64,000 nucleotides of DNA, taken from NCBI RefSeq assembly GCF_964204645.1, contig NW_027437465.1:17001-81000 (forward strand), in the 5' to 3' direction. Origin of the DNA: Tubulanus polymorphus. Lineage: Eukaryota; Animalia; Nemertea. The position numbers and the translations under genes are program-made. Under the pieces are notes generated by a model. The model worked only from the letters and a program-made list of their open reading frames with translations, had not been told where the DNA came from and made no database searches. Shown piece by piece: positions 40,601-63,689 of the stretch (its first letter is position 1; every line of letters begins with the position of its first letter).

Positions 40601-40831
40601 TTAAAATAATCATATACATGAATAACATTTAAATTGACAGATTATTCAATATAAAAGTGTAAGCTCTTATAGAATAGATATATAGATATATTTACAACAT
40701 TATTTCAATATTTATATTTGCATGAGTTAGATTTTTAAACATTAAAAGTGTTAGTAAAGTGTGATTGAAATAATACATACTAAAATCATTGAACTTCTAA
40801 AATCAATTTAAAAAAAAAATTTAGTATTAAA

Positions 40832-43800: not shown

Positions 43801-44852
43801 TAAACCCGAAAATCATATTCGTACAGAAAAGTTAATGGTAACTCAGGAAGATAAATCTAATTATGTAGTACATTATAGAATGTTGAAGTTTTATTTGAAT
43901 CAAGGAATGGTTCTAAAAAAGTACATAGATATATTTCATTTAGTCAATCTAAGTGGTTAGAAAAATATATAGATTTTAACACCAAACAGAGAACTAAAGC
44001 TAAAATTGATTTCGAAAAAGATTTCTTCAAGTTAATGAATAATGCATTCTATGGTAAGACTTGTGAAAATATTAGAAATAGAAATGATATTGAGTTAGTT
44101 AGTAATGGTAAAAGGATAAGGCATTTACAATCATATCCCAAGTTTTTAGGTAACAGAATATTTGATGAAAATTTAGCCGCAGTTAAGATGAGAAGAACAT
44201 CAATGAAACTTAATAACCAATCTGTGTTGGAGCATCAGTTTTAGAATTATCAAAATTACTAATGTATGAATTCTATTATAATGTATTACAACCACTTTTT
44301 GGAGAAAAACATATAGAAATATTATATTTTGATACCGATTCTTACATATTAAAGATAAAAACTGATAACATAACAGATGATTTAAAAACATTAAAACATC
44401 ATTTTGATTTTAGTAACTATCCTAAAGATCATGAATTGTTTAGCAATGATATTAAAAAAGTTCCCGGTAAATTCAAAGATCAATTAGGTGGTGAAGAAAT
44501 GATAGAGTTCATAGGTATTAGATCTAAAATGTATTCATATAAAACTAAAGAACATGAAGCTAAAAAGTCAAAAGGAATAACCAAAAGTGTAGTAGAAAAG
44601 AATATTCATTTCAAAGATTACATCAATGAAGAAGTTAGAAAACATAAAATGAGATGTTTAAGATCTGAAGATCATGAAATGTTTATTGAAGAAATTGAAA
44701 AGATAAGTCTAAACCCATTTGATGATAAAAGATATATTCTGGATGATGGAATTCATACAGTTGCTTATGGTTGTAATTTAGATGAATACTTAAAATTTAA
44801 AAGAGAAGAAACAAAAGAGAACGAGATAATGAAAAGAATTCTAACGTGTTAA
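40832..44852 (+). pseudogene. pPolB: Protein-primed family B DNA polymerase, broken by stops and frameshifts
   Basis: ORF fragments 40832-41809, 41930-42118, 42084-42308, 42557-43960, 44035-44244 and 44262-44852. Motifs: ExoI YGDFES, ExoII FHNLSGYDAHLF, ExoIII LYLKSDV, PolA YIDANNLYGWAM, PolB KLMNNAFYGK, PolC YFDTDS, plus NEDDKCFLW. Also an endonuclease-VII-like insert (CYYC..VRDHDHLNGKFRGAAHENCN) and N-terminal C2H2 zinc fingers. Confidence 0.96.
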
Positions 44853-44881
44853 TCAAATTTTGATAAAAATATGTATTATAA

Positions 44882-45235
44882 ATGGAGAGTAAACAAACAC
44901 ACAGTGAGAACAACAAATTATTTCTAGATAGAATTAAAGATATCACAAATGTAAAATCTGTAGATTATAAATTCAAAAAGTTAACAGAATTAACAATCCA
45001 TAAGAAATATCTAATTACAGATATTGTTACAGTTACTAATAACTATGGAGATAAATTAGTTATACACTTAGAATATGAACGATTAAAAGGAAATACATAT
45101 AAATTCAGAACATATTTACCAGATAGATTTCATAGATTATCAAGTGAAGATTTTGAAGAATTATGTTCTGGTGATTTCTATTTCGTATACAAAGGTAAGA
45201 ATGAAAAAGGGCACCATGAAATAGATTTCGAATAA
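44882..45235 (+). CDS. Small Polinton protein (117 aa), possible OB-fold/ssDNA-binding; paralog of 49932-50258
   Basis: Intact ORF with TATAAATG start. Shares FKKL..L, YG(D/E)K, (T/V)(Y/F)LPD and Y.GKNE.GHH with the 49932-50258 ORF. The function is a guess. Confidence 0.6.
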   Translation: MESKQTHSENNKLFLDRIKDITNVKSVDYKFKKLTELTIHKKYLITDIVTVTNNYGDKLVIHLEYERLKGNTYKFRTYLPDRFHRLSSEDFEELCSGDFYFVYKGKNEKGHHEIDFE

Positions 45236-45249
45236 ATTATGTAAAATAA

Positions 45250-46008
45250 ATGGTGGAATTAAAAGAATACAGAATATTTGTTGATTCAAGAAAACTTACA
45301 AATTATAAATCTCATAATTTACTAGTTCAATTAGATAGAGAATTTAAGAATTGTGTAGATTTGAAATTAGTAAATATAAGTTTATGTAATTCTTTTTATA
45401 ATATATCGGATAAAACTATTGGAGATAATACTGTTTTAATTCATATTAGAAATGTAGATAATTGGTTTCATCTAATTTTAAAACCAGGATTATATAATTT
45501 AGAAACATTAGCTCAAGAAATTAATCGAAGAGCACGGTTGAAAATTAGAAGAGATGATAAATTTTTAATTAGATTTATAAAAAGTGATAGCACAAATAAA
45601 ATTAAAATAAAGGTATATGATGAAAGTCAACATGCATTTATGGTAAAAAAACCTATAGCTAAACTGTTAGGAATTGTACCAGATACTGTTACAGGAAACG
45701 TAGATGGTAATTCAAATATAATACCTTTTACACACTTTTATATTTATTGCAATTTAATCGATCCTACAAAAACTTTCGAAGCAACTAAAGATATAACTTG
45801 TAATTCTGGTTTACTAAACATTTTACCATTGAAGAATGTTAACTAATTTGGAACGCAAATAAATTATAATTTAACAGAATGTGATTTCAAACTATGCATT
45901 CCTCGTTTTAATAATTTTAGATTAGAAATTAGAAATCATAATGGATACTTAATTGATTTAAATAATTTCCCTGTAATTTATGAATTAGTTATAAGATGTA
46001 GAGAGTAA
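45250..46008 (+). pseudogene. Minor capsid protein (penton, single jelly-roll) with one premature stop
   Basis: RIFVDSR..., ISLCNSFYNIS, LKPGLYNLETL, YIYCNLID, LLNILP. After TAA at 45844-45846 the frame continues ...LEIRNHNGYLIDLNNFPVIYELVI, a typical Polinton mCP C-terminus. Confidence 0.8.
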
Positions 46009-46024
46009 TTTTTTCATTATATAA

Positions 46025-46381
46025 ATGAATATAACTGTTGGACCGAGTATATGTTTTGGGTTTGATTTTAAACGTGAGAAAGAAATGAAATTTAACGTTA
46101 ATGATGTAATTACACATATCAAAAATATTACATTTTCTAATGAAACAACATTTGAGTATGAAACAACAATAGATCAAGAAACTTTAAATGTAGAAAAGAT
46201 TACTAATTTAATTAGAGAATCTTTAAGATTTTATGAATTAGATGAAGATTTTATCATCGATGATATCAAAAAAATAATAATTGAAATATATACAAATGAA
46301 ACTAGTAATGAAATAAATGTTGAATTAATCATAAATAAGATAACTAAATATTTTGATGATAGTAATTTTTTTGATAAATAA
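46025..46381 (+). CDS. Hypothetical acidic protein (118 aa)
   Basis: Intact ORF, TATAAATG start, co-oriented in the viral gene block. Confidence 0.55.
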   Translation: MNITVGPSICFGFDFKREKEMKFNVNDVITHIKNITFSNETTFEYETTIDQETLNVEKITNLIRESLRFYELDEDFIIDDIKKIIIEIYTNETSNEINVELIINKITKYFDDSNFFDK

Positions 46382-46603
46382 ATGAGTGATAATAAGTGGA
46401 TAATAACTGGATGATATAATGGAGCATTACTATCAGTTGGAACTGTTGGTTATTCAATGGTATTAAAAAAAGTATTTAAAATGGGAAGTGTTAATGTTGA
46501 TAGATTTGATATAAATGATATTTTAAAATTAACATTAGCAGTTACTTTATCTAATTTAACTATTGATTATTTAGAAAAACAAAAATATATTACTCCCATA
46601 TAA
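46382..46603 (+). pseudogene. Small hydrophobic viral protein with an in-frame TGA
   Basis: Manual translation: MSDNKWIITG*YNGALLSVGTVGYSMVLKKVFKMGSVNVDRFDINDILKLTLAVTLSNLTIDYLEKQKYITPI. AATAAATG start. Confidence 0.6.
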
Positions 46604-46627
46604 ATGCATAATTACTTTACTAAATAA

Positions 46628-47050
46628 ATGGCTTCTGCAGTTATAACTAATATAGGATCGGCAATTGTTAACGCTTTAGCATTTACTGGTGGTGGATATT
46701 TATTTAAATATATTGATAAAAATGGATCATTAACAGAACAAAAAATACATAACTTAGCATTAGAGAAATACAATAAAGCAGCAGAAGAATATAGAGAAAA
46801 GAGGCAAAACTATATGGATTATATTAACAAGGAATTATATGATCAGAAGATTTCACACAGAGATTTTCAATCAGTTGATGATGCAATGAGTTTATATAAC
46901 GCGGTAACAAATAAAGAAAAATTACATCTACATAAACCTACAATATCAGATTATTATACCCCAAGTAATGAACAGAAGAAATATGAAATAATTTGGATTT
47001 TAGGTGGAACAGTTATTGTTATATTTGTTGCTAATAAGTTTACTAATTAG
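46628..47050 (+). CDS. Membrane-active/structural viral protein (amphipathic N-terminus, C-terminal TM), 140 aa
   Basis: MASAVITNIGSAIVNALAFTGGGYLF followed by a coiled-coil and a hydrophobic C-terminus (IIWILGGTVIVIFVA). Resembles small ORFs I recall from invertebrate Mavericks. Confidence 0.65.
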   Translation: MASAVITNIGSAIVNALAFTGGGYLFKYIDKNGSLTEQKIHNLALEKYNKAAEEYREKRQNYMDYINKELYDQKISHRDFQSVDDAMSLYNAVTNKEKLHLHKPTISDYYTPSNEQKKYEIIWILGGTVIVIFVANKFTN

Positions 47051-47070
47051 TAATTTTTTTTGCTAAATAA

Positions 47071-47495
47071 ATGGATGATAATATTGATATTATTCCTCAT
47101 GATATAAATAAAACTAAATTAAAAATATATTTAGAAAAACAAATATTAGAATTTGAAAGTGACTTAAAGATAAAAAAGAAAAAATATTTAAAAAGTGAAA
47201 TTATATATTATTTGATTATAAGTGGTTCGGTTACAATTAGTTCTGTAATAACATTTCTAGCAATATTCAGTCCATTAACACCTTAAGCTATATGAATTGG
47301 TGTATTAGGATTAAGTGTTAAAGTGTTTTAACTGGTATAAGTTCAAAATTAAACATAAAAAGTAATAAAGAAAAAATTAAAACTAATATAAAAGAAATTA
47401 ATAAATTAAAGAATACACTAGATTATATAATAAGTTTAAATGGCCATATAACAGTTGAAGAACAAGATAAATTATTAAAAGAATTAGTTAATTCT
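47071..47495 (+). pseudogene. Coiled-coil/two-TM viral protein, disrupted and fused to the integrase remnant
   Basis: ORF 47071-47286 with a hydrophobic segment. The coding-like sequence continues through stops and a frameshift to ...KLLKELVNS. Confidence 0.5.
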
Positions 47496-47948
47496 TATCA
47501 TTCTTCTATTGGAATGAAACCTATTGATGCTAGAAAACCTGAAAATGCTGAAATTGTTTGGAATAATTTATATGGAGCATTTCTTGTAGATGATTTTGGT
47601 GAACCTAAATTTAAAGTTGGTCAAAATGTTAGAATTTCTAAGTATAAAAAGATATTTGACAAAGGATACGATCGAAATTTTACTAGGGAAATATATAGAA
47701 TAAAAAAGGTAATAACAACAAAACCATATGTCTATAAATTAGAAGATTTAGATGGTGAAGAAGTTGATGGCTACTTTTACGAAGAAGAATTAAGTTTAAC
47801 TACTGAAAATCTAGAACAAGAATATAAAATTGAAAAAGTATTAAAAACAAAAACTATTAAAAGAAAAAAATATTCTTTAGTAAAATGGGTTGGATGGCCA
47901 GATAAATTTAATGAATGGATATTATCAAGTAAAATTAAAAATATATAA
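47490..47948 (+). pseudogene. int: Retroviral-type (Polinton) integrase, C-terminal part with chromodomain; DDE core deleted
   Basis: NSYHSSIGMKP, PKFKVGQNVRISK..FDKGY..NFT.EI, YKLEDLDGEEVDGYFYEEEL, and chromodomain YKIEKVLK..YSLVKWVGWPDKFNEWI. Confidence 0.9.
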
Positions 47949-48557
47949 ATGAATAAGGAATTATTCATATTTGAGCCTCATAATATGTTAATTTCTGGTG
48001 TAACAAATTGTGGAAAAACTTATTTTATATTAAATCTATTAGAAACTGTTTATAAAAACTATTTTGATAATATAGTATTATTTTGTCCAACATATGAATT
48101 TAATGAAACTTATGATAGAAATATTACTAGAAATAATAAATTTATTATATTAGATCCTAAAACAGTAAAAGAAAATTTAGATAATTGTATTAAAATAGCA
48201 ATAGATATTTATAAAGGATCAAATACATTATTCATTATAGATGATTGTGCTAATCTACATGATTCAAAAGTTAGAGAAAGTGAGCTGTGCTATTTAGCTT
48301 TTTCTGGCAGACATTTTGGGATAACAACTTGGGTTTAAAATCAAAAATATAATTCAATTGTTAAAGACGTTAGAGAAAACATTAGATTTCTAGTTTTATT
48401 CTACAATAAAGATAGAAAATCGATGAAAAATGCACTTGAGGAAAATGATATTATTCCACATGATTTACATAATGAATATATGGATAAGTTGAAAAATATT
48501 AAAAGATCAAAATTACTATTTAGATTACAACACCCATTCAAATATGAATTTATTTAA
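47949..48557 (+). pseudogene. DNA packaging ATPase (FtsK/A32-like) with one premature stop
   Basis: Walker A GVTNCGKT, Walker B LFIIDD, GRHFGIT motif. TAA at 48336-48338, after which the frame continues NQKYNSIVKDVRENIRFL... to TAA at 48557. Confidence 0.92.
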
Positions 48558-48558
48558 A

Positions 48559-48835
48559 TTCAACTAGCTTGTTAATCTAGTTGAATTCTAGTTACATTCT
48601 AGTTGAATTCTAGTTATTTGTAGTTGTAACAAAAATCAACTAGATTTAACAATATTTTAACTAGCTTGTTAATCTAGTTTAATTCTAGTTACATTCTAGT
48701 TGAATTCTAGTTGTTAGTAGTTGGAACAAAAATCAACTAGATTTAACAAGAAATAAACAAAAACAACAATATTTCAACTAGCTTGTTAATCTAGTTGAAT
48801 TCTAGTTACATTCTAGTTGAATTCTAGTTGCAACA
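48559..48835. repeat. Three ~97-117-bp tandem units built from CTAGTT/AACTAG sub-repeats
   Basis: AACTAGCTTGTTAATCTAGTT(G/T)AATTCTAGTTACATTCTAGTTGAATTCTAGTT at 48562, 48659 and 48776. Confidence 0.9.
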
Positions 48836-48861
48836 TCACAACTAATTTTTTTGTTATATAA

Positions 48862-49468
48862 ATGGTAGGTGAAAAGAAAATAAAATCTAAAAATGGTGTT
48901 GTTCCAATTGAAAAAACTTAAGATGATTTAGGAATAACAGAAACAAAAATTAACTCCAGATGATGGTGCTTTAAATAATATTACAACAAATAATAATTAT
49001 GAATATTATCTTTATTGTAAACATCAATTAGAAATATTTATAGCATCTGGAAAATGTAAAAATTTTGTCGGTAAAAATTTAACTTATAATGAATTAGATA
49101 CAATGAAATCAGATGAAATTATTAGATTATTTAAGGTTTATGAAGCCGCGAGAACAGCTAGAATTAGTGACGCGATATCAGAAAATGTAGTAAAAGGTTA
49201 TAGTAAATTATGTAATTATATACTACCAATTGAAGATGAAAATAGATTATATTCCGATTTAAAAAATGATTATTTAGTTATGACTGAATTAAATAAATGG
49301 ATTGGATATTTATCATTTCAATTAGGTGGATTTATGACATTATTATCAACTGGGGTTATAACATTTTCAAATATTGAAAGTAAAAATATTTCTATAATAA
49401 ATGAGCGAGGTGGAAGAAGTGAAGGAATTAACTGTGAAGAAAAAACCGAGATCACAGAAACAAATTGA
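48862..49468 (+). pseudogene. Conserved Polinton hypothetical protein 'A', disrupted
   Basis: ATG at 48862, then stop/frameshift. YEYYLYCKHQLEIFIASGKC...LYSDLKNDYLVMTEL is homologous to 56050-56624(-). Confidence 0.7.
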
Positions 49469-49769
49469 ATGGTCTCGGCAATTAGGAATTAAATCACAAG
49501 AATATAAAAAAGCTGTAAAAGAAAAAATAAGTAATAAAAATGTTAATAAAAACGGTGAAAATATTGTTATTTCTACTCCTTCTAATGATAGAATATTTGA
49601 TAAATGTCTATATTTTACAGTTGGATTTGTAATTGTATTCATTTTGATTGGGTGTAATTGGTATAAGAAATCAAATAAAATTCATGATATTAATAATTCT
49701 GAAACAACTGCTATTAAGAATGAAAATACTTCTGAAATTCCAAAATTGACAATAAAAAAAATGGATTAA
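49401..49769 (+). CDS. Hypothetical TM protein 'B' (122 aa)
   Basis: Intact ORF, AATAAATG start, KKPRSQKQIEWSRQLG motif and a TM segment. Homologs at 55689-56049(-) and 63690-64000(-). Confidence 0.7.
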   Translation: MSEVEEVKELTVKKKPRSQKQIEWSRQLGIKSQEYKKAVKEKISNKNVNKNGENIVISTPSNDRIFDKCLYFTVGFVIVFILIGCNWYKKSNKIHDINNSETTAIKNENTSEIPKLTIKKMD

Positions 49770-49824
49770 TATTTTAGAAAAAAAGCAAAAAAAATAATTT
49801 TTTTTAATTAATTGAATATTAATT

Positions 49825-49901
49825 GAATATCTCACTACTTTTGTCTATCTATGCGGAACAATTAAATTGTCCAGATAAGTCATTTCGGATTCTAGATATT
49901 C
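49825..49901. other. Conserved ~77-nt non-coding element (candidate structured RNA or cis-site), copy 1
   Basis: TATCTCACTACTTTTGTCTATCTAT...TGTCCAGAT(A/T)AGTCATTTCGGAT recurs at 56721-56798 and, inverted, at 63570-63646. Closed by a terminal stem GAATATCT/AGATATTC. Confidence 0.6.
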
Positions 49902-49931
49902 ATTATCTTTATTAATTTATTTTTTAAAAAT

Positions 49932-50258
49932 TTAATCAACAATTTCTAAATCATGATGGCCATCTTCATTTTTTCCATGATAGATTATTTTAAATCCTTC
50001 TAAATCTTTTAATTCCTCTGTACTCAATGAAGCCCATTTATCAGGTAAAAATACTTTAAATTCTCGCGATGTACTAACATTGCAGTAGCTTAAATTAGCT
50101 GATACTTTCTCTCCATATTTAGTTTTTATCTTTTCTAATTTCAATATTTTATGTTCAATTTCTTTTGTAACATCAATTAACTTTTTTATTTCAAATTGTT
50201 TTTTTGCTGGTTTTATTCTGTTATTCATTGTTGCTAAGAATGCTTTTCTATCTCCCAT
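49932..50258 (-). CDS. Small Polinton protein (108 aa), paralog of 44882-45235
   Basis: Intact ORF with AATAAATG start; KYGEKV, FKVFLPDKW, YHGKNEDGHH. Confidence 0.65.
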   Translation of the reverse strand: MGDRKAFLATMNNRIKPAKKQFEIKKLIDVTKEIEHKILKLEKIKTKYGEKVSANLSYCNVSTSREFKVFLPDKWASLSTEELKDLEGFKIIYHGKNEDGHHDLEIVD

Positions 50259-50297
50259 TTATTAGGAAAAAAAATTACTTGTGGTGATGAGTGGTGT

Positions 50298-50343
50298 CTC
50301 GACCGCTCGACCTCTGGTATGAAAGCCTACTTTTCCTACTACT
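50298..50343 (-). repeat. Right terminal inverted repeat of element 1
   Basis: The reverse complement AGTAGTAGGAAAAGTAGGCTTTCATACCAGAGGTCGAGCGGTCGAG matches 40418-40463 at 36/46 positions without gaps. It starts 5'-AGT as Polinton termini do. Confidence 0.8.
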
Positions 50344-51656
50344 GTGGTTCTAAAGATCCATCGACAGATGAATTTGATAGAAGAACTAGATCGAGAATAG
50401 ATCCTGAAAATGTAAATCCAGATTTAGTAAAACAAAATTTAGAATATCATGAATATATTTATAATTTCAAACCTATATTTGAAAGATCTGGATATAATAT
50501 AAATAATAAAGGTGCTAGACTTTTAATACAAGAATTAAAATCTTGAGATGGTGAATATTATTATCATTTGAAAGATGATTATTATATTGATTTCTCTTAT
50601 AAAAAACAAAACAAAATATTAGCAGAATCAACTTTGCTTAAGTTAGACCTATCTAGAATTAAAAGAATAAGAAATAGTAATGAAATAGAAAATGCTACTG
50701 ACGCAGAAATCATTAAAAATGAAAAGGTATTTAAACAAAGAATTAATGACTTATTTGAAACAATCAATAATAATTTAGAACCAGAAACAACTTCTGAACA
50801 GAATATAACTTCCAAAACTAGTAAACCTAATTCAAGAGGAGTTCAAACTGAAAAACTTTTACCAAATGGTTTACTTGATGCAACAGATCAAGAATTAGAA
50901 GATTTAAATATATTTTCTGATAAAGCAATTAGAGAAATTTTTAGTAAAAGACTTGTATCTGATAAAATTACGCATGATAAAAGTATAAGAGATTTTAAAA
51001 TTAGAACTTTAGAAAAAGATAGAACTGATAAAATAAAAGAAATAGAACAATTAAAATTAGATAGAGATAATAAAGTTATTGAAGAAATTTAATTTAAAAA
51101 AAGAAATGCATATTTAGAAAAAGAAAAAGATGGTTTAGAATAAAACATAGAATTTCAGAAAGAAGAAATTAAATTATTAAAAAAATCATATGATTATAAT
51201 ATTAATAGATTAAAAGTTATTTTCAAAGATTTGTTGATAAAACCAAATTCTGAAATATCATTAAAAGATAGAATAAGATTATTATTTAAGTTAGAAGGTA
51301 TAACAATTCTTTCAATTCTAACAGCTGTAACTATGTTATTTACAACAATAGGTTTAGCAATATCAAATTCATTAAAATCTACGCCGACACCCAATAAACC
51401 AGATAAACCTCCAAGTCATGATAATTCTATACAGGATAAAGTGAAAGATGGATTAAATAAATTAGCAAAATATCTATGGCAACTATCTAAAAAATTTGCT
51501 GCAGCTTTACCCGGAATTATTGCATCAATTGTTGGTTTTATATTGAAATCTGCAGGAAGTATTATTAACTTTGCTGCAGAACATATTATCTTATTTTTAA
51601 TTACAGTTGTAAGTGCAATTATTTTTGGATTAGTGAATATGATAAAAAATAAATAA
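50344..51656 (+). pseudogene. Large coiled-coil protein with C-terminal hydrophobic helices (Maverick structural/membrane protein), 5'-truncated and disrupted
   Basis: Fragments 50344-50546, 50568-51092 and 51231-51656. LKDRIRLLFKLEGITILSILTA...LAKYLWQLSKKFAAALPGIIASIVGFIL resembles a conserved invertebrate Maverick ORF. Confidence 0.65.
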
Positions 51657-51676
51657 TTAACTTCTTTGTTAAATAA

Positions 51677-52948
51677 ATCAGTGGGAGTTATATAAATCCT
51701 TCTAAGAATTCAAGAATATCTAGTGCTATTAAAGCAGAAAGATCTCATCATATAATTACTCATAGCCCTTCTAATATTAATCCCGATAAAACCTTATATG
51801 TTAGAATTCCTCGATTAACACAAAATACTTTTTATGTTCCAAATAGTATTTATTTATCAGCTGATATAAATGTAACTGGTAATAATAATAATTATGTTGT
51901 TGATAATGTTGGAAGATATTTGATAAAAAAATTAACTATAAAGATTGGACCAGAAATAGTTTTCTCATTAGATGATTATAATTTATTTATGCATTATAGA
52001 GATTTATGGCTAAAAAAAGAAAATAGAAATAATATGATATTTCAAGGCATCCAATCAGAAAACCAAAATAAATTAAGATCAGAAGCTAATAATGCAATAA
52101 TAACTAATGCTACAGATAATTTGATAAAAAAGATTTATGGTAGTAAATATAAAATTCCATTAGATTTTGAATTGATAAATGATAATGCACCTTTATATAA
52201 ATATGCTATACAAGAAGATATTATATTCGAGATAACATTTGCTCTTGTTAATGAAATTGTGCTATCTAGCGTTGTTAAAGATATGGGATATAAATTATCG
52301 AATATATGTTTAGAATATGATACAGTAACTGATGAAAATATTGCTAGCATAATTCAAACTCAATATAATCAAGGATTTTCATTATTATATGATTATATTG
52401 ATAAATTTAAAACTGTAACTATTAATGCAAATGATGAAATAATGAATGAGAATATTAACTTCCCAAGAAGATCTATCAAAGGTATATTAATATTTTTTAC
52501 AATTGCAACATATTCTAATGGCGCAATACAGGTTGATAAGTATTACAACCCTGAAATAATAAAAGTAGAAATTACTATCGAAGGCATAGCAAATAAAATA
52601 TTTTGCCAGGGAATGAGAATGATAGATCAGTGGCCAGAAATTAAAAAACATTTTATGAATGAAAAAAATAAATCATCTGAAAATTGTAATATTAATCAAA
52701 TAGATTATTATACTGGTAATAAATATGCATTATGGTTAGATTTCAGAACAACACAGGATAATTCATTACATGGTTCTGGTAAAAAATTACAGAATACTAA
52801 AGATGGGATACAATTATTCATGACAAAGGAAAAAGGAAGGTTAAATTTCAAAATGCACATTTATATTATATCTGACGCGCAATTAAATATTGTTAATTCT
52901 CAATTCAATAGTGTTATGTATCAAAATTTTAGTTTTAATAAAAATTAA
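51677..52948 (+). pseudogene. Major capsid protein (double jelly-roll); frame open but start codon mutated (ATG>ATC)
   Basis: The frame is open from AATAAATC (ATC at 51677): SGSYINPSKNSRISSAIKAERSHHIITHSPSNINPDKTLYVRIP..VPNSIYLSAD..VVDNVGRYLIKK. It continues into ORF 51920-52948 (YKIPLDFEL, LSNICLEYDTV, PRRSIKGIL, LWLDFRT..DNSLHGSGK, YIISDAQLNI). Confidence 0.85.
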
Positions 52949-52956
52949 TATAATAA

Positions 52957-53747
52957 ATGGAGGCAGGTAAAGTATAAACATATTCCATACATTGATAAAC
53001 ATGAAAATAATGATGGCTTATATTATGTAATACCTTGTAATATAGCTTTGATATTTGATCCTATTTTCAAAAATTAAAAAACTAAACTAATAGAAATCGG
53101 TAATAATAAAAGTGAAGTTGTTGATAATTTAAGTAATGAAATTGATAATAATGTTTTACCTTCTACATCTGATGTTTTACCTTCAACATATAATAATGAA
53201 ATAATATTAGATTATAGTGAAAATAGAAATTATTGTGGTTATTGTAAAGGTGAAATTCAGCAGGCCATCAAATTGGAATAACCATATGAATACATTTGTA
53301 CATATTACTAATGTTATAAAACGTGTTGGTTTAAGAGAATTTATAGAACACCCATTTAGATATGTAACAAAGTTTGTTTCAAATAACAAAGTAAATGGTA
53401 AAGATTTATATAAAGATTCATTAGGTGAATTTTTATCTAAGGAACCTAGTAATGATACATTAGGTTTATCTGCTGCTAAAAAAATATTAGGAGCAAACAT
53501 TGTAAAAAAAATATTGAGGCCAAACACTAAGAAAGAGGATATAGATACAGATAATGAAGATTATATAGATACAGATTGGACAAAAGATGAAGTAGTAACT
53601 ATTGATGATGCGGTAGTTAGGTTGAAAAAGGATTATAATGAAAAAACTTATGATGATCCGGTAGAAAGGTTTAATAGATTGTTAGAGTCTGATGATGAAT
53701 TGGAGGATGATGATGAAAATGATGTTAATTATCTCACATTCACATAA
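52957..53747 (+). pseudogene. Hypothetical protein with a frameshifted C2H2-type zinc finger and acidic tail
   Basis: AATAAATG start at 52957. YCGYCK joined across a frameshift to VKFSRPSNWNNHMNTFVH. Acidic C-terminus. Confidence 0.5.
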
Positions 53748-53784
53748 AATAATAGTTGAAAATAGTATAAAATAATAGTTAATA

Positions 53785-54016
53785 AAAAAGGGGGTTTTAA
53801 GCATTCAGGTATCTTATACGTATCTAATACATATTTAAGTATTTATGTATCTAATATGTATTAATCTATATAACCTCTATTATTTTCAAACTTAGTTGGA
53901 AAAATAAAAATACATTGGTTGAAAAATTAAAATAAATAATATATATTTCAAAAGGGGGTTTTAAGCATTTATGTATCTAATACGTATCTAATACGTATCT
54001 AATACATAAATGCTTT
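53785..54016. repeat. Intergenic repeat/palindrome block between convergent genes
   Basis: AAAAGGGGGTTTTAAGCATT twice (~53787, ~53950); GTATCTAATAC tandem units; inverted repeat AAGCATTTATGTAT...ATACATAAATGCTT at 53963-54015. Confidence 0.75.
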
Positions 54017-54023
54017 AAATGCC

Positions 54024-54620
54024 TTATTTTATAAATCTATATACATAAGGAAATTGAAGCCTCAGAAGTAATTTGGAACCTTTATTATTGTTTAATTTAT
54101 TCATATATTCATCATGTAATTCAATAGGTATAATTTGATTTTCTTCCAATGATTGTTGCATTGATTTTCTATCTTTATTGTAGAATAATACTAAAAATCT
54201 AATGTTTTCTCTAAAGTCTTTAAGAATTGAATTATATTTTTGATTTAAAACCCATGTTGTTATCCCAAAATGTCTCCCAGAGAAAGCTAGATAACATAAC
54301 TCACTTTCTCTAACTTTTGAATCATGTAAATTTGCACAATCATCCACAGTGAATAATGTATTTGATCCTTTATAAATATCAATTGCTATTTTTATACAAT
54401 TATCTAAATTTTCTTTCACTGTTTTAGGATCTAATATAATGAACTTTTTTATCTTAACTATATCTCTATTATATGTTTTATTCATTTCATAAGTAGGGCA
54501 GAATAATATTATATTACCAAAATGATTTTTATAAATAGATTCTAACAAATATAATATGAAATGTGTTACACCAGTAACTAACATATTATATGGTTCAAAT
54601 ATAAATAAATCTTTATTCAT
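54024..54620 (-). pseudogene. DNA packaging ATPase, open frame but Walker A deleted
   Basis: MNKDLFIFEPYNMLVTGVT-----HFIL, versus ISGVTNCGKTYFIL in element 1. LFTVDD and GRHFGIT are retained. Confidence 0.9.
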
Positions 54621-55690
54621 TTGTTCTTTTAATTTTACTAGATAAAATCCATTCATTAAATTTGTCATCATACCCTTTATATTTCACCAAAGAATACTTT
54701 TTTCCTTTAAGAGTTTTTGTTTTCAATACTTTTTCTATTTTATATTCTATTTCATCTGGATTTGGCACAAGTGATAATTCTCGTTCATAAAAGTAACCTA
54801 ATATTTCTTCATCTTTTAAATCTTCTAATTTATAAACAAATGGTTTAGTTAATATTATCTATTTAATCTTAGATATTTCTTCAGTAAAATTTGGAGTATA
54901 ACCTTTATAAAATGTTTTTCTATATCTAGATATTCTAACATGTTGTCCTATTTTGAATCTAGGTTCTCCAAAATCATGTGTAACAAATACTCCATATAAA
55001 TTATTCCAAACTATTTCTGAATTATCTTCTTTTCTAGCTTGTATATATTTCATACCAATACTTGAATGTTTAGAATTATTATAACCTTTCACCAAATCAT
55101 CTAATACATCTATATATTTATTTGTTTCATTAGCAGTAAAATATTTCCACATTCTAGTTTTCGAAATTTTATTAAATCTTTCTATAATAGATGCTTTTTT
55201 GTCTGAGTGTGTTGAAAAATATTCTTCATCGTTATCAGATAATAATTTTCTAAAATGTTTATTATAGAATTCCTTACCTTCATCAAATTGTATCTTACCT
55301 GGAATAGCTTCTTTAAATACTTATTTAAAAGCATTTGTTACTTCTATACCAGTGTTATTTTTGATTGGTATACTCCTGCTGAATATATCTATAACATTTA
55401 ATATCCAGAAATATCCTTTGTTGTATTCCTCTAAGTATTTCATATCAATCAAATCTGCTTGCCATTGTTGATCGATATGTGAAACCATAACTTTTCTCGT
55501 TAAATGATTTTTATCTATTTTCTTATGGATTTGATATGTTGGTTGATTTTGTAACCATAATCTTAGTTCACTATATCTTATATTTTCTTTATCAGATTTA
55601 ATTTTATCCCATAATTCTGAAACACTAGAACATGATACTTCACTCTCTGGGTTAATTCTCTTGAATATTGTTCTCTTTTCATCTTCTTTT
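54613..55690 (-). pseudogene. int: Polinton integrase (rve DDE core plus chromodomain), disrupted
   Basis: Manual translation: WLQNQPTYQIHK..QQWQADLIDM..NKGYFWILNVIDIFSR, IQFDEGKEFYN, KKASIIERFNK, YNNSKHSSIGM, and chromodomain YSLVKYKGYDDKFNEWI. Stops and frameshifts are present; the start is approximate. Confidence 0.92.
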
Positions 55691-56049
55691 AATCCATTAA
55701 TAATAATCTTGGTTTATTTTCAATGACTTTATCATTTGACTTATTTTCTGGTATAATAGGTTTATCATCGGAATCATCTTTATCATCAGATTTATACTTG
55801 TATATTACACCAGAAAATAAAATAATTGTGATTAATCCAATTGTAATATATAATTTATTATTACTTCCAGCATTAGAACCATTAGATGGATTATCATTCG
55901 AATCAATATCAGATAATTTATGTGACTCATTTTATAACAGTTAATTTCTTTTTCTTAGCTCTTTTTAATTCTGAATATCTTTTACCCAACTCCCTTGCCC
56001 ATTTAATTTGTTTTTCAGATATAGGTTTCTTCTTTATATCATCACTCAT
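55689..56049 (-). pseudogene. Homolog of protein 'B', frameshifted
   Basis: AATAAATG start, MSDDIKKKPISEKQIKWARELGKR, a TM segment, and the same ...MD* ending as 49401-49769. Confidence 0.65.
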
Positions 56050-56624
56050 TTATTTTAGTTAATTTTTGTTCTGTTTCAGTATTGTTATCTGAATTACTTT
56101 TATCTTCACATGCTATAGGTTTGATGTTAGAAATGTTCTCCAGTAGAAATTTATGTAATTATTCCTCCTAATTGGAATGAAGCATATCCGACCCATTTTT
56201 GTAGTTCTGTCATAACTAAGTAGTCATTTTTTAAATCACTATATAATTTATTTTCATCATCAATTAGTATAATCCGGTTACATAATTTAGAGTAACATTT
56301 TATAATACCATCACTAATAGAGTCATTTATTCGGGCTAATCTAGCTTCTTCATATATTTAGAAATGTTTTATTACTTTATCTGGTTTCATATTATCTAAT
56401 TCTTGAAAAGTTAAAATTTTTCCGATAAACTCATTACATTTACCACTAGCAATTAATAATTCTAGATGGTGCTTACACATCAAATAGTATTCATAATCAA
56501 TATTATCATTTTGAATACAATTAGAAACAACTGTATCATTATTGCCAGTAATGCCCAAATCCTCAATTGTCTTTTCAACATCAATATTATTCTTATTAGA
56601 TTTCTTTGACATTTTCTTTGACAA
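56050..56624 (-). pseudogene. Homolog of protein 'A', disrupted
   Basis: EKTIEDLGIT..YEYYLMCKHHLELLIASGKC; downstream LYSDLKNDYLVMTEL. Confidence 0.7.
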
Positions 56625-56720
56625 TATAAAGTATTCTCCTTTTAAAAAGATAATATCAAAAATATAATAGAATTCACTGGCTAGTTTAAGTTATTGTTTT
56701 TTTAAATACTTAGGATTTAG

Positions 56721-56798
56721 ATTATCTCACTACTTTTGTCTATCTATAGGAGCGGTAACAATAACTGTCCAGATTAGTCATTTCGGATCCTCGATAAT
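56721..56798. other. Conserved non-coding element, copy 2 (diverged)
   Basis: ATTATCTCACTACTTTTGTCTATCTATAGGAGCGGTAACAATAACTGTCCAGATTAGTCATTTCGGATCCTCGATAAT. Confidence 0.6.
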
Positions 56799-57408
56799 AA
56801 ATCCTCAACTGAAAATCAATTCAAAGCAACGACTGGTGGAAATACTATTTCGTCAACATATATATTTATTATGCAAATTAGCGCATGCGCAGAAGCAATA
56901 ACGGTCCTAGAAGATTGCTGCTGCTCATGCACCAATTATATAATTTATTCTGTAAACTACAACATTCAAACATAGACCAGTAACCAATCAATACAGAACA
57001 GCCGCGACCGAACGACTAGTGCACGCGCAACTGCAATTCCAACATATATAATACATTGTAAGTCTATACAGTATGATGAATAAGCTTCAGTCTCTTGTGA
57101 TGAAATATCCTTAATTTCTGATTCAGAATCCATCCATCTTCACCTTCTTATTTCAATGGTCTTCATTTTGTTATCTAAAAGATATCTAGCGTAGAACATA
57201 ATTAACTTGAAGTTGAACCAGGTTTATACTAAAATTTAACACGAGTCAAAACATAGCTTGTGAGTTTGGGAAGTGGCTTGTATTTCACTTTATTACAGCT
57301 CGTGTGTGTTCCAAAGTCACAGAGCTGTTGTTAAATATATATTTAAACAAAATATAGCTGCAAAGCAGCGATAACGGTTTTTTTGCTGTCTTAGAATCCT
57401 GTTCATCG

Positions 57409-57645
57409 GTGGATTTCGATAAAGCATTTGATAAGGCACAACATCAGCCATTACTAACAAAACAGGCTTTTAGGAAACAGTATCAATGATAAGTCGCCCA
57501 AATGGCTCAGCAGTTATCTCTGAATGAAAACTTATAGCCAAAATCAACGGAACGCCTCATCTTGGAATAAGTCGGTCTAACTAGTGGAGTCACGCTAGGT
57601 AGTATCCTAAGTCGTCTACTGTTTAATGTCCTGACAAATGACATA
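57409..57645 (+). pseudogene. Highly decayed non-LTR (CR1/L2-like) reverse transcriptase fragment
   Basis: Manual translation VDFDKAFDKAQHQPLLTK ... WLSSYL* ... TSGVTLGSILSRLLFNVLTNDI matches the RT motifs LDFxKAFDxVxH and SGVPQGSxLGPLLFNIYINDL. Confidence 0.7.
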
Positions 57646-57884
57646 CACAGTAATCCAAAATATACCGCAAATCAATTGTGACAAAGTATTGATGCAAATG
57701 ACCTATTTAGTTCATCGACCATGTACCGAACATTATTATTGTGCCCCAGCATTTGGGGTCATTCTACTTGAACCCCAACATTCAATATGTCCACCAGATT
57801 CTGGTGATGATAAAGTCATTTTAATTTTTCTGCCAACTTCATTTCTTCGTTCATATTCATCTAACATTAAACATCATTAAGCAT

Positions 57885-58610
57885 CAATATATCGATGTAA
57901 CTAGGAAGACCTTATTTAAAATTTCGTGATTTTTATGTCGACTTTTTGCGATATTGTCTCAATAAATTGCCATACGTATCACGATATTTTAGCTAAAGGA
58001 GTGATAATTATGACGACAGTACGCGGTTATGTTGAGATACAGACGTCGGCATTGGTGAAAGGCGTGATCCGTATAACGATTTATCGTGATATTAACACGA
58101 TATATCGACTTAATTATGTCGATAAATCGCGATATATCACGTTTGTTCGACATAATTTCGTCGTGATAAAAAGTCGCGACGGTCCCATATATACGGAAGT
58201 ACGGAAGCGATAAAGGGCCTCGAGTTGTCGCGTTCCAACTCGACAAAGTCGCCATATTTATGTCGACATATCGCGATATATCGCTTCAAGTCGACATGAA
58301 TATGTCGACATATTGTTTTGACGACATATTTCGTTTTCTCAACCATTTTCCTCGCAACAATTCGACATATTCATGACGACTTGAAACTCAGTCGCCATAT
58401 TACTGGCGTCCTCATCTTACATTTCGACGTGTCCTCAAATGACAGCTTGTCCCGTGGAAAATGGGCGAAAAAGCGAAATTTGTCGTGAAAACGTCACGAT
58501 ATGTCGACATATTCATGTCGACTTGACGCGATATATCGCGATATATCTGCCAAAATGACCTTAATATTCGACACTATATCAGACTATATCGACTTCAAAA
58601 TAGGCGAAAG
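57885..58610. repeat. Degenerate CG-palindrome-rich repeat (ATATGTCGACATAT, ATATCGCGATAT motifs)
   Basis: Many GTCGAC, CGACAT and ATATCG words; TATGTCGACATA at ~58259, ~58302 and ~58500. Confidence 0.5.
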
Positions 58611-58659
58611 CATAAGTTTTTATAACGTTATTAATTGGTCTAATTATTCAAAAGCTAAT

Positions 58660-59640
58660 AAAGTGGGCGACAAAACCAAAAAAATGAATTGTCACGGGCA
58701 ATAAAACCAAAATAATCAATAATCAAATAAACCCAAACTAATGAATTGTCGCGGGCGACAAAACCAAAATAATGAATTGTCGCAGGCGACAAAACCAAAA
58801 TATTGAAATGTCGCGGGCGATAAAACCAAAATAATGAATTGTCGCTGGCGATAAAACCAAAATATTGAATTGTTGCGGGCGACAAAACCAAAATAATGAA
58901 TTGTCGCTGGCGATAAAACCAAAATATTGAATTGTCGTGGGCGACAAAACCAAAATATTGATTTGTCGCGGGTGTCAAAACCAAAATAATGAATTGTCGC
59001 GGGCAATAAAACCAAAATAATGAATTGTCGCGGGCGATAGAACCAAAATAATGAATTGTCGCGGTCGATAAAACCAAAATAATGAATTGTCGCTGGCGAT
59101 AAAACCAAAATATTGAATTGTCGCGGGCGATAAAACCAAAATAATGAATTGTCGCTGGCGATAAAACCAAAATATTGAATTGTCGCGGGCGATAAAACCA
59201 AAATAATGAATTTTCGCTGGCGATAAAACCAAAATAATGAATTGTCGCTGGCGATAAAACCAAAATATTGAATTGACGCAGGCGACAAAACCAAAAGAGT
59301 GAAATGTCGCGGGCGATAAAACCAAAATATTGAATTGTCGCGGGCGATAAAACCAAAATATTGAATTGTCGCGGGCGACAAAACCAAAAAAATGAATTGT
59401 CGCGGGCGGTAAAACCAAAATATTGAATTGTCACGTGCGACAAAACCAAAATAATGAATTGTCGCGGGCGATAAAACCAAAATATTGAATTGACGTGGGC
59501 GACAAAACCAAAATATTGATTTGTCACGGGTGACAAAACCAAATTAATGAATTGTCGCGGGCGATAAAACCAAAATAATGAATTGTCGCGGGCGATAAAA
59601 CCAAAATAATGAATTGTCGCGGGCGACAAAACCAAAATTA
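58660..59640 (+). repeat. 31-bp minisatellite, ~31-32 copies
   Basis: Unit AAAACCAAAATA(A/T)TGAATTGTCGCGGGCGA(T/C), containing the mini-hairpin TGTCGC-GG-GCGACA. Confidence 0.97.
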
Positions 59641-59691
59641 TTGTTTTGTCGCGTTATTTTAGTTTTGTCGTTTTGTCATAATGCCACCCAT

Positions 59692-60910
59692 ATTTGCATA
59701 TTCATGTTTTTTTTACGCATGGCCCTTATCAGCCACCATACTAAAGCCTTAAGGTCGCGTAAAACTCGATAAACACTTCAAGCGACACAGCGAACGATCT
59801 CCTTTCCCCCACAGCGAACGCTTAACCCAGGAAGAAATCCACTAAATATTTGGATGGATATATGAAAGCTGTGGGTACTGGAGTGTGTAATGGGTAGTGT
59901 AGTGTGATCTGTGTGCATTTGTGGCCAGCACACAGATCACATTGTTCATTGGGGTTTAGTCCAGGACTCGCGAGATTTTCAACAACACGGAAGTAACGTG
60001 TAATAAATGATGACTTGAATTGCATGTCTACCTACCACCCCTCATTATTGTTGGAAAAGTAAACGTTCCGCACTGACTAAAAATTAGTAATAATAATTAA
60101 TAACATTTTAGAAATGGCCAGAATTTTAACTTAGGTTCTATCTCATTTTTATTTTACAATTGCGTTTGGTATAATTTTTTTTAAACGGCCGTTAAGGCTT
60201 CATGTTTCGTCTGCAATTCACTGCAAATAGTTACGCAACTACGCACATTTCAGTGTTTTTGGCGGCTGTACACTCAATCGGCACCGTTCGTGACTAGCCT
60301 CATTTGCATATTCGTGTTTTTTTACGCATGGCCCTTATCAGCCACCATACTAAAGCTTTAAGGTCGCGTAAAACTCGATAAACACTTCAAGCGACACAGC
60401 GAACGATCTCCTTTCCCCCACAGCGAATGCTTAACCCAGGAAGAAATCCACTAAATATTTGGATGGATATATGAAAGCTGTGGGTACTGGAGTGTGTAAT
60501 GGGTAGTGTAGTGTGATCTGTGTGCATTTGTGGCCAGCACACAGATCACATGTTCATTGGGGTTTAGTCCAGGACTCGCGAGATTTTCAACAACACGGAA
60601 GTAACGTGTAATAAATGATGACTTGAATTGCATGTCTACCTACCACCCCTCATTATTGTTGGAAAAGTAAACGTTCCGCACTGACTAAAAATTAGTAATA
60701 ATAATTAATAACATTTTAGAAATGGCCAGAATTTTAACTTAGGTTCTATCTCATTTTTATTTTACAATTGCGATTGGTATAAGTTTTTTTAAACGGCCGT
60801 TAAGGCTTCATGTTTCGTCCGCAATTCACTGCAAATAGTTACGCAACTACGCACATTTCAGTGTTTTTGGCGGCTGTACACTCAATCGGCACCGTTCGTG
60901 ACTAGCTTCA
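59692..60910 (+). repeat. Two-copy tandem duplication of a ~610-bp unit
   Basis: ATTTGCATATTC(A/G)TGTTTTTT... at 59692 and 60302; near-identical through ...CGTTCGTGACTAGC. Confidence 0.95.
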
Positions 60911-61084
60911 CTGCGGAATTATCATTAATTAACATCGCCATATCACATCATCAACTTATATTGTGCCTTAAAACCCTAACAGCCGAAATAAATGAAATGC
61001 ACACACGATTTCTATCATTGAAAATTGAGAGAGTGGCGGTGTTTGTGTTCTGCTGCTTCGCGTAAATCCCGCGCGGAGTGGCGA

Positions 61085-62189
61085 CTTAGTCGAGTTACAT
61101 TGTGGAGAAAATTAATCGATAGTAGCATAACGGGGAATTTCTTAAATACAGTTAAAATGTATATATATTATAACTCGGTTAAGTCATGTGTTAAATTTAA
61201 CGGTAGGCCTAACACATCACAATACTTTGCTGCAGATAGAGGCTTACGACAAGGCGAAAACTTATCACCAATTCTATTTTCCCTATTTCTAAACGATATT
61301 GAAGAGTTTTTTCTCACGCGCCGTAATCCAACTTTGTCATTTATTGAAAAACTGAATCTTAATTGTGATCCAGAACTAGGGACTTTACTTAACGTATTCA
61401 TTATCCTTTATGCAGATGACACAGTCATTCTTGCTGAAGATGAAAAATCTCTCCAGTTACATTTAGATACACTATTTGAATATTGCGCCGACAATGGCCT
61501 TTCAGAATGTTGATAAAACTAAAATATTAGTCTTCGCTAGAAGTAAAAGTAGGATCAAGAAAATTTCTAGAAAATTTATGTTTGGTAACCAAGAGTTAGA
61601 GGTAGTTGAAGATTATTTGTATCTTGGAGTAAAATTCAACTGGAATGGCAGTTTCCCTAAAGCAAAAAAATGTCTTTATGATAAAGCTATGAGAGCCATG
61701 TTTTCTATTATTCAGAAGGGTAGACGTTTGAAACTTCCGATAGATGTAATGCTTAAACTATTTGACATGTGTGACGCTCCTGTAGCACTATACGGCTGCG
61801 AAATCTGGGGTTATGAGAATCTCGATTTACTAGAAAACCTCCACTGCTTATTCTGTAAAATTATTATGAAAGTTACGAAATATTCCCATAATGTGCAAGT
61901 GCTGGCAGAGCTAGGGCGTTATCCTATGTATATTGACGTAAAGCGTAGAATGATCAATTTTTGGGCTAAAACGGTATCGTGCAAGCAAACTAAACTAAGT
62001 TCAATCCTTTATAAAATATCTCTCAATTTATATGTTAATGACAGGTTTAAGAGCCCCTGGCTGTTATTTATTAAGAAGATTTTAGATGACTGCGGTCTAT
62101 CGTATATTTGGACGCAGCAATTAATGGTTAACTCTATGACACTCTCAAAGAAATTAAAATGTGTACTCCGAGACCAGCACGTACAAGAG
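61085..62189 (+). mobile_element. Non-LTR retrotransposon (LINE) RT fragment, frameshifted, cut at its 3' side by element 3
   Basis: LWRKL, GLRQGENLSPILFSLFLND, ILYADD, (frameshift near 61500) NVDKTKILVF, YLYLGVKF, YGCEIWG, ELGRYP. Ends at DQHVQE, where the Polinton terminus begins. Confidence 0.93.
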
Positions 62190-62270
62190 AGTAATTGGGA
62201 AAGTAAGCTTTCATACCAGAGGGCGAGAGGGCGAGACACCACTCATCACAAGTAATTTTTTTCCTAATAA

Positions 62271-62596
62271 ATGGGAGATAGAAAAGCATTCTTAGCAACA
62301 ATAAATAACAGAATTAAACCAACAAAAAAACAATTTGAAATAAAAAAGTTAGTTGATGTTACAAAAGAAATTGAACATAAGATATTGAAATTAGAAAAGA
62401 TAAAAACTAAATATGGAGAGAAAGTATCAGCTAATTTAAGCTACTGTATGTTAGTACATCATGAGAATCTAAAGTGTTTTTACCCGATAAATGGGTTTCA
62501 TTGAGTATAGAGGAATTGAACGATTTAGTAGGATTTAAAATAATATATCATGGGAAAAATGAAGACGGTCATCATGATTTGGAAATTGTTGATTAA
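62271..62596 (+). pseudogene. Frameshifted copy of the 49932-50258 gene
   Basis: MGDRKAFLATINNRIKP... is nearly identical; frameshift near 62448; ends ...HHDLEIVD* at 62596. Confidence 0.85.
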
Positions 62597-63569
62597 ATAA
62601 AAAATAAAAATAATGAATATCTAAAAATGACCTTAGTCGTTTTATAAACAACTACAATCATACAGTCAAACATCTGTTACATGTTATTACAAGAGAGTGC
62701 TTCATTTGAATATTGATCGATCAAACAGGTGTTGCACAACGTTGTTGTTATATAATAAGCACGCAGTACATACAACACACACAAGCCAGTTAGACGGCAT
62801 TGAACTACCACGTTTTCATTGGTTGCTGAAAGCGAGGTTTATTTAAATTAGCTCGGCCGTGACGACAGGAGGATAGTCATCATTCTCTCTCGTGATTAAA
62901 AGGAATATTTCAATGTTTTTACGGTAAGTTTTAGCAAAACCACCCGACTTGACCGGCAGAGTTTTTAGGGGATAAGCATCCCGTTATTGAGAGGCGCCAC
63001 GAGATACCTATCCCCAAGCATTTCTAATTACACCCCTGTGACCCACACCTCACCAATTCTCCTTCAATGGTTGACAGGAAACACATTATATTAAAGGCGC
63101 CTAATGCATTTCCTATCAACCCCTTACCCCCGAAAGGAGGATCGAAAGTCGAAACTGAAGGAGAACCACGGAGGGTGGACAAAGGTGCATTTTCGAAATG
63201 CCCCTGCAAGCCAAGCCCGGCGGCACTCCAGTGGTTGAATGAATTGCCTTATATACTTAGCTAAAACACCTAAGTAAATGTTGCTGGTGCTAAAAAAATA
63301 TGTGAAATTTGAAATTATAAATTATTCCGAATGAAAAGAATATAAGAATGAAAACTGATAAATGAATTATGGATTTTTAACTTAATTATGATATAATTTT
63401 TAATCAAATTAGTAATCAATTACTATGTTAATTGATTAACAAATTCAAATTCAAATATTCATTTTAGCATACCCAGTGTTGTCATCTTTCAATTTAAGAA
63501 AAAACTAATAATAAGAAACGACTGTAATACAATATTCAAGTAAAAACAAAATAAATTAATAAAAATAAT

Positions 63570-63646
63570 GAATATCTAGAATCCGAAATGACTTATCTGG
63601 ACAATTTAATTACTCCGCATAGATAGACAAAAGTAGTGAGATATTC
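63570..63646. other. Conserved non-coding element, copy 3 (inverted)
   Basis: GAATATCTAGAATCCGAAATGACTTATCTGGACAATTTAATTACTCCGCATAGATAGACAAAAGTAGTGAGATATTC is the reverse complement of 49825-49901 with 2 changes. Confidence 0.65.
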
Positions 63647-63689
63647 AATTAATCAAAAAAATTATTTTTTTTGCTTTTTTTCTAAAATA

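Follow-up and report, generated by a model that had tools for sequence, protein, structure and literature searches.

How are Polintons transcribed in animal genomes, and do they need a helper virus? Here we offer a sequence-level answer for one clade. The locus in question is a 64,000-nucleotide stretch of the nemertean Tubulanus polymorphus (contig NW_027437465.1, positions 17,001 to 81,000, forward strand), hereafter the window, which contains an AT-rich Polinton (GC 0.237) at about 40418-56740. A first-pass annotation had noted that the start codon of nearly every gene of this element is embedded in WATAAATG. It likened this motif to a poxvirus late promoter and proposed that the genes are tuned to a cytoplasmic pox-like RNA polymerase, with the element a provirophage-like hyperparasite activated by helper infection and possibly an antiviral defence. 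We found that the start motif is real and under selection across a Polinton clade, that its layout differs by no more than one base from the vaccinia late promoter as published, and that the polymerase of a pox-type helper is its most plausible reader.

A conserved motif at the gene starts

All 13 gene starts at which WATAAATG had been reported carry it, but the start at 62271 belongs to a 97% duplicate of the gene starting at 50258 and is not an independent site. T-runs had been reported at six starts; TAATTTTTT lies upstream at 46006, 46363, 47051, 48843 and 62253 on the forward strand and at 50277 on the reverse strand, the last position correcting an earlier 50278. Two variant starts are also as described: the pPolB gene reads TAAAATG, with T at -12, and the gene for the major capsid protein (MCP) has a mutated ATG at 51677 and keeps its upstream motif. 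At 46382 and 47949 the motif abuts the stop codon of the preceding gene, and these are the only two window starts that do so.

Across the element (40601-56740), TAA precedes 12 of 17 assigned ATG starts compared with 39 of 639 other ATGs (p=6e-11), and the longer WATAA precedes 12 of 17 compared with 10 of 639 (p=3e-16). The starts assigned at 54620 and 56612, in an inverted block at 54024-56700, lack TAA. Because the list of 17 starts came partly from the first-pass annotation, we also used a non-circular test, in which a weight matrix was trained solely on 56 starts of environmental relatives and then scored on the window element. Starts named by the annotation took ranks 1-11 in the element, and 13 of the 14 top sites are gene starts. 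Twenty order-2 Markov shuffles gave 0-2 sites at a score that 12 real sites reach.

The relatives were fetched by capsid alignment, which returned 18 metagenome contigs and one contig from a genome collection, all of them partial (2-11 kb). In 14 of the 19, open reading frames (ORFs) were called by a mechanical rule that takes the first ATG following a stop and a minimum of 60 aa; the counts omit L003 because it nearly duplicates L002, L013 because it nearly duplicates L012, and L014, L016 and L018, whose frames are broken. The 11 environmental relatives that are intact have capsids 50-76% identical and a GC of 20-44%; in them TAAATG is found at 50 of 56 starts and at 71 of 1,799 other ATGs. 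The four closest (69-76% identity, GC 0.21) have it at 27 of 30 starts versus 48 of 929 other ATGs (p=3e-29), and seven at middle distance (50-55%, GC 0.36) at 23 of 26 versus 23 of 870 (p=9e-30). Three more distant Polinton-like contigs (41-45% MCP identity) have it at 0 of 12 starts. The contig L017 (41% MCP identity) has, in a gap of 37 nt between head-to-head genes (1837-1875), a T-run and AAAATG on each strand, possibly a variant promoter for another helper.

Conservation extends upstream of the start codon. Among the 50 motif starts of the relatives, T occupies -12 in 47 and -13 in 38. Positions -18, -6 and -4 favour A, and the spacer from -7 to -4 is conserved as well (TAWA). Several of the six starts without TAAATG show TAAAT a few bases 5' of the ATG.

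Could the motif simply be a by-product of AT-richness, the AAAATG Kozak context and tight gene packing? The element is indeed poor in GC, and TAAATG occurs 60 times in the window. However, the enrichment over other ATGs of the same contigs is about 17-fold in the close and 33-fold in the mid-distance relatives, and the motif is kept at 6 of 8 starts in two contigs of GC 0.40-0.44. Moreover, the base at -3 is T and not a purine, and the T at -12 is fixed. We regard this explanation as close to negligible. AT content, Kozak context and TAA-ATG abutment had all been raised by the annotation as ordinary sources of the motif; we tested each, and none explains it.

A second possibility is that the motif is a translation signal, for stop-restart or internal entry on a polycistronic mRNA, rather than a promoter. 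In favour of this, the TAA next to the ATG forms an in-frame stop, an ORF ends right against two of the window starts, and many genes lie in tandem. Yet only 1 of the 50 motif starts in the relatives abuts a called upstream ORF, and neither TAG nor TGA takes the place of TAA at any of the 56 starts. The first genes of divergent units, furthermore, have the motif on both strands: TAAATG stands on both sides in 6 of 7 head-to-head pairs, with ATG gaps of 19, 24, 28, 28, 30 and 72 nt, although the five with gaps of 19-30 nt are not fully independent cases, as L009 and L010 resemble each other. A translation signal is thus quite improbable. Gene order is shuffled among L001-L012 with each gene keeping its own start motif, an arrangement that fits one promoter per gene.

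A layout close to that of poxvirus late promoters

What kind of promoter does the motif resemble? In vaccinia late promoters TAAAT(G) overlaps the start codon, and a T lying 10 nt upstream amid weaker T residues is conserved (PMC11980589); intermediate promoters combine TAAA with an A-richer core (PMC5294985, PMC12917281). Initiation within AAA, with slippage, gives a 5' poly(A) leader (PMC4542343, PMC6211774). TAAATG is kept in salmon gill poxvirus and at a late gene of an entomopoxvirus (PMC4542343, PMC3061580).

Set against this literature description, the Polinton motif has a layout within one base of the vaccinia late promoter. Common to both are TAAAT(G) over the start codon, an upstream T-rich (or A-rich) core whose distance is fixed, and a T, about 10 nt upstream, that hardly varies. 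The differences are that the signal here lies within a Polinton, that the conserved T is the 9th rather than the 10th base upstream of the motif T, and that the -7 to -4 spacer is conserved. The promoter that the element has in common with large cytoplasmic DNA viruses is a match to the poxvirus late consensus, taken from literature text rather than from a named helper. The relatives suggest a division into a late class with a T-core (MCP, 9 of 11) and an intermediate class with an A-core (ATPase and gV). We do not claim this split, because A-cores often lie in upstream coding sequence and the T-run of one gene in a head-to-head pair is the A-run of the other.

Host RNA polymerase II (Pol II) is the obvious alternative reader, perhaps steered by an element protein and starting nearly leaderless transcripts at the motif, which would make the element autonomous in the nucleus. 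About 10 conserved ORFs of unassigned family, a chromodomain integrase and the presence of many copies are all in keeping with such autonomy. A Pol II TATA box, however, sits 25-30 bp before the start of transcription (PMC5294985). The AT-rich core at -18 to -10 is too near the ATG for a TATA-type complex and cannot act as the TATA box of transcripts that begin upstream of that ATG. Nor, unless their leaders overlap, could two ordinary Pol II promoters fit into divergent gaps of 19-30 nt. A T at -3 runs counter to the Kozak context and is poor for translation, yet it becomes understandable where a poly(A) leader takes its place. As pPolB of L001 likewise has the motif before it, an activator made by the element would be left with no evident early promoter, and neither TBP nor TFIIB gave a family match in the ORFs scanned. 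We consider nuclear autonomy unlikely.

A pox-type helper as the probable reader

Our preferred reading, to which we give a probability of roughly 0.6, is that the TAAATG signal serves as a promoter for the cytoplasmic RNA polymerase that a co-infecting pox-type helper supplies, as in virophages. We infer this from the layout of the motif, its conservation, the short divergent gaps and the lack of any RNA polymerase, TBP or TFIIB family match in Pfam and NCBIfam scans of the ORFs of the window and of the partial relatives. By analogy with vaccinia, the AAA of TAAATG would be where transcription begins, and slippage there would yield a non-templated 5' poly(A) leader in place of the unfavourable T at -3. 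All genes, including those for pPolB and integrase, would then stay off until the post-replicative phase of helper infection, with expression in or near the helper's factory. Integrated copies would otherwise be silent, as in the case of mavirus and its helper, Cafeteria roenbergensis virus (CroV).

Several points weigh against this reading. The best-conserved T is displaced by one base from the published position, which is T in 38 of 50 starts. A polymerase gene could lie elsewhere, as the relatives are partial contigs, and one of the conserved ORFs that match no known family could be a transcription factor. No gene turned up that is common to these elements and poxviruses in particular. When IMG/VR was scanned for the exact motif, 11 stretches were returned, six giant-virus-like and five phage-like, and none was recognised as pox-like; a loose-pattern count in three of these records was about that of a reversed control. 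Finally, the many genomic copies need either frequent infection of the germ line by the helper or some expression without it. The proposal that the genes are tuned to a pox-like polymerase therefore stands as the best reading, on the strength of the late-promoter match and the head-to-head geometry, but the IMG/VR scan gave no helper virus to go with it.

Nor is TAAATG, which is short and AT-rich, exclusive to poxviruses. As controls we used IMG/VR contigs with one perfect motif match, dropping that match from the counts and omitting L030, a near-duplicate of L023, and L025, which shares genes with L021. Unrelated giant-virus-like contigs (GC 0.30) have TAAATG at 18 of 66 starts (27%), 8 of these 18 also carrying T at -12; among phage-like contigs the count is 6 of 50. 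TAAATG is thus fairly common in AT-rich large viruses, but it falls short of 89% of starts there and lacks the fixed T.

Might the signal then be read by a cytoplasmic helper that is not a poxvirus, either another giant virus lineage or a linear virus-like element of the yeast type? Giant-virus contigs can hold a perfect match to the motif and use TAAATG at more than a quarter of their other starts, and yeast virus-like elements, whose polymerase is related to that of poxviruses, have a TAAAN initiator and poly(A) leaders (PMC6211774). On the other hand, the sampled giant viruses have A at -3 in 40 of 66 starts and T at -12 at background level. The late initiator of African swine fever virus is TATA, unlike the Polinton motif (PMC7163114), and the yeast elements need an upstream element of early-promoter type, of which none was seen here, though without a formal test. 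We find a helper of this kind conceivable but doubtful.

Position and state of the window copy

Is the copy in the window itself able to respond to a helper? The element is a Polinton by its pPolB, integrase, ATPase and capsid, and this copy is decayed, integrated and one of many. Window positions 1-40418 are satellite with a 118-bp unit (GC 0.46), the tandem structure having been checked for 36000-40418 and the composition being uniform from base 1. Abutting the end of the satellite is a 182-nt inverted repeat with AGT...ACT ends (40418-40599; arms 91% complementary), which is likely the left terminus of the element. Neither a partner for this AGT-beginning left end nor a 6-bp target-site duplication was found within the window. 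Read depth in the bin of the inverted repeat is about twice the usual level of the element, and a stretch of about 152 nt just inside it (40631-40782) is missing from many reads.

In one whole-genome run (1.9 Gb read), 107,700 of 12.9 million reads fall on 40420-58500, mostly 90-95% alike, at a depth over the element of roughly 100-1,400. The high depth at this divergence indicates many diverged copies in the genome. No RNA run was listed with sequence from 44000-53900, and three same-species runs with hardly any shared words gave 4-5 short pieces each; neither result bears on expression. Most genes of the window copy contain stops or frameshifts, and at 46382, 48862, 52957 and 56049 the frame stays intact for just 10, 19, 6 and 40 codons, respectively. 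The window copy is therefore not itself an activatable provirophage, contrary to what had been proposed. It is dead, too broken to make particles by itself, and the helper argument concerns the family.

Parts of further copies lie nearby. The inverted block on the reverse strand (54024-56700) comes from a second element, about 74-83% identical, and includes gX', gY' (motif at 56049), integrase and ATPase. A dispersed copy of the gZ region (62190-62626, forward strand; start 62271; 97% arm match) sits beside a long interspersed nuclear element (LINE) reverse-transcriptase remnant, and a copy of gY with a conserved non-coding element (63548-64000, reverse strand) is 94% identical to 49459-49923. 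The LINE remnant spans 61157-62255, with an RVT_1 match at 61157-61510. Other repeats of host type are a 31-bp minisatellite in 32 copies (58665-59653) and a 608-bp tandem duplication (59708-60850). Between genes of the element, 97-bp and 11-bp tandem repeats occupy 48559-48830 and 53755-54020; similar repeats follow the ATPase gene of L001 and gV of L005.

Genes of the element

Genes are on the forward strand except where stated. The element opens with pPolB (40832-44852), which carries zinc fingers and an endonuclease VII domain and survives in several pieces (Pfam DNA_pol_B_2, E=3e-11; Endonuclease_7, E=4e-5); its relatives are full-length, at 1,319-1,365 aa, and 76-80% identical. Two related pPolB proteins, P0155 and P0159, carry PF14890, which we take to be an intein splicing domain. 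Promoter-like motifs then mark the starts of g2 (motif 44870-44884; gene 44882-45235, 117 aa, a paralogue of the 50258 gene) and of a gene at 45250-46005 with one stop inside (motif 45238-45252). The latter is likely the penton, or minor capsid, gene: the best fold match of its L001 orthologue is the mavirus penton, a weak match (E=0.005) from a single-sequence model with a predicted local distance difference test (pLDDT) score of 39.

A T-run with TAAATG precedes both g4 (46006-46027; gene 46025-46381) and g5 (46363-46384), a broken gene for a small membrane protein. The g5 motif abuts the g4 stop in the window, and the L001 orthologue of g5 has the motif without abutment. Next come g6 (motif 46616-46630; gene 46628-47050, 76% identical to its L001 orthologue) and g7, a broken SLATT-like gene with two predicted transmembrane segments (T-run and TAAATG at 47051-47073; gene 47071-47489). 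The L001 orthologue of g7 (2541-2972) matches SLATT_4 (E=4e-5) and SLATT_fungal, both under the curated cut-offs. Standing behind one of the strongest motifs, g7 could be a candidate lysis or defence effector. The ATG at 47071 opens this SLATT-like gene and not the integrase gene.

The rve-chromo integrase is represented by its C-terminal part (47466-47948), aligned by tblastn with the L002 integrase from residue 201 and matching Chromo; the N-terminal part is missing from the block. Both rve and Chromo are found in L001 and L002, to whose integrases the window pieces are 72-78% identical. Directly abutting the integrase stop is the broken gene for an A32-type packaging ATPase (47935-48557; start 47949; Pox_A32, E=1e-9), with an A-rich core and TAAATG. 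The top-scoring motif of the element, a T-run with TAAATG at 48843-48864, opens the frameshifted gX (48862-49468), and gY follows (motif 49389-49403; gene 49401-49769). On the reverse strand, gZ (50258-49932) starts from a T-run with TAAATG at 50256-50277.

Between gY and gZ lies a conserved non-coding element of about 75 nt (49825-49900) that recurs at 56720-56796 and 63570-63646 and in L001 at 2436-2520, where it is 78% identical; it has moved between gene orders. Its predicted fold is a hairpin, in which 4 sequences show 3-5 two-sided changes, and Rfam matched neither it nor anything else in 40300-64000. A small RNA, an origin and a recombination site are all conceivable roles.

The region 50319-51656 holds gW, the broken remnant of a gene for about 485 aa (53% identical to L001 gW from residue 77), for which no start codon is identifiable in the window copy. 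The double-jelly-roll MCP follows (51660-52948), its upstream motif present and its start codon not intact. Its predicted fold (pLDDT 84.7) gave Foldseek matches to the capsids of iridovirus, PBCV-1 (Paramecium bursaria chlorella virus 1), mavirus and Sputnik (E 5e-16 to 1e-10, 9-13% identity). Among the MCP homologues listed, the sole one named as eukaryotic is a bivalve protein with 39% identity, which, like the LINE remnant and the satellites, points to an animal host; IMG/VR yielded no relative of the MCP or of the ATPase. The last gene before the inverted block is gV (52945-53747), broken, with the motif at its start at 52957.

Some relatives carry genes that were not found in the window copy. 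A deoxynucleoside kinase is encoded in L001 (10343-10981) and L007 (2898-3377; Pfam dNK, E about 1e-31); a search for its homologues gave 10 unnamed matches and no link to any virus family. L001 also encodes a 442-aa orphan (2996-4321), for which there are 1,372 homologues but nothing informative in Pfam or PDB. The hydrophobic C-terminal tail of its close relatives makes a polymerase unlikely. Another Polinton-like contig, L019, is GC-rich, carries MCP, ATPase and pPolB, sits inside an archaeal metagenome-assembled genome and is probably mis-binned.

Relation to known elements

With Mavericks/Polintons the element shares pPolB, rve-chromo integrase, A32 ATPase, double-jelly-roll MCP and many integrated copies, and probably also a penton and an AGT-type end. 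It differs in the poxvirus-type start motif, present at about 89% of the clade's genes and at none in the three contigs of 41-45% MCP identity. Adintovirus-type Polintons and the virophage morphogenesis module have an adenovirus-like cysteine protease, whereas Pfam and NCBIfam scans matched none among the ORFs of the window or of the partial relatives.

Is the element a virophage? Virophages share late promoters with their helpers (PMC6428243). Mavirus (the Cafeteria provirophage, helper CroV) and Sputnik are, like the element described here, small double-stranded DNA viruses with the late promoter of a large virus, and mavirus also integrates and has pPolB and an rve integrase (PMC6428243). 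Here, by contrast, the motif is of poxvirus type and the host is an animal. Its MCP is 11% identical to those of mavirus and Sputnik, which rank under the iridovirus and PBCV-1 capsids, and so is not of the virophage type. Taxonomically the element is no virophage, though it likely acts as one.

Polinton-like viruses (PLVs) have been found in entomopoxvirus occlusion bodies (PMC11296320), and these (AHEV_PLV1/2, CBEV_PLV1 and Ca_PLV1) are proposed poxvirus hyperparasites in animals, as our element would be (PMC11296320). The PLVs were linked to poxviruses by co-sequencing with occlusion bodies, and the link here is the promoter; they encode a protease, and an rve integrase is not reported for them in the parts of PMC11296320 available. 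The words "promoter", "motif" and "TAAAT" are absent from the main text of that paper. The yeast cytoplasmic virus-like elements (pGKL) are also linear, pPolB-replicated and equipped with a TAAAN initiator, but they encode their own RNA polymerase and capping enzyme, neither of which was detected here, and our element has capsid and integrase genes (PMC6211774). A PLV that uses the early promoter of a giant virus has been published (10.1101/2022.07.28.501842). In the portions available of 10.1101/2024.03.23.586382 and 10.64898/2026.10.13.758929, the word "promoter" does not occur. We found no report of a Polinton with poxvirus-type promoters in the literature searched, a scope that left out most subscription papers and supplements.

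Implications

If a pox-type helper polymerase does read the motif, what would follow for animals and their viruses? Promoter mimicry in the style of virophages would extend from protists to the integrated elements of an animal host, and the association between entomopoxviruses and PLVs would gain a mechanism. The reading also predicts a pox-like virus, yet to be discovered, in this host. More tentatively, the clade may consist of virophages of an undiscovered poxvirus lineage in a non-insect invertebrate, with integrated copies serving as an inducible defence that would be triggered solely by the appearance of the helper's late polymerase and would parasitise the helper's factory, possibly with the SLATT-like protein made from the same promoter. 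The defence idea is drawn from analogy and from the weak SLATT-like match. If the clade has this nature, the motif would be a sequence tag for new poxviruses and their satellites in animal genomes.

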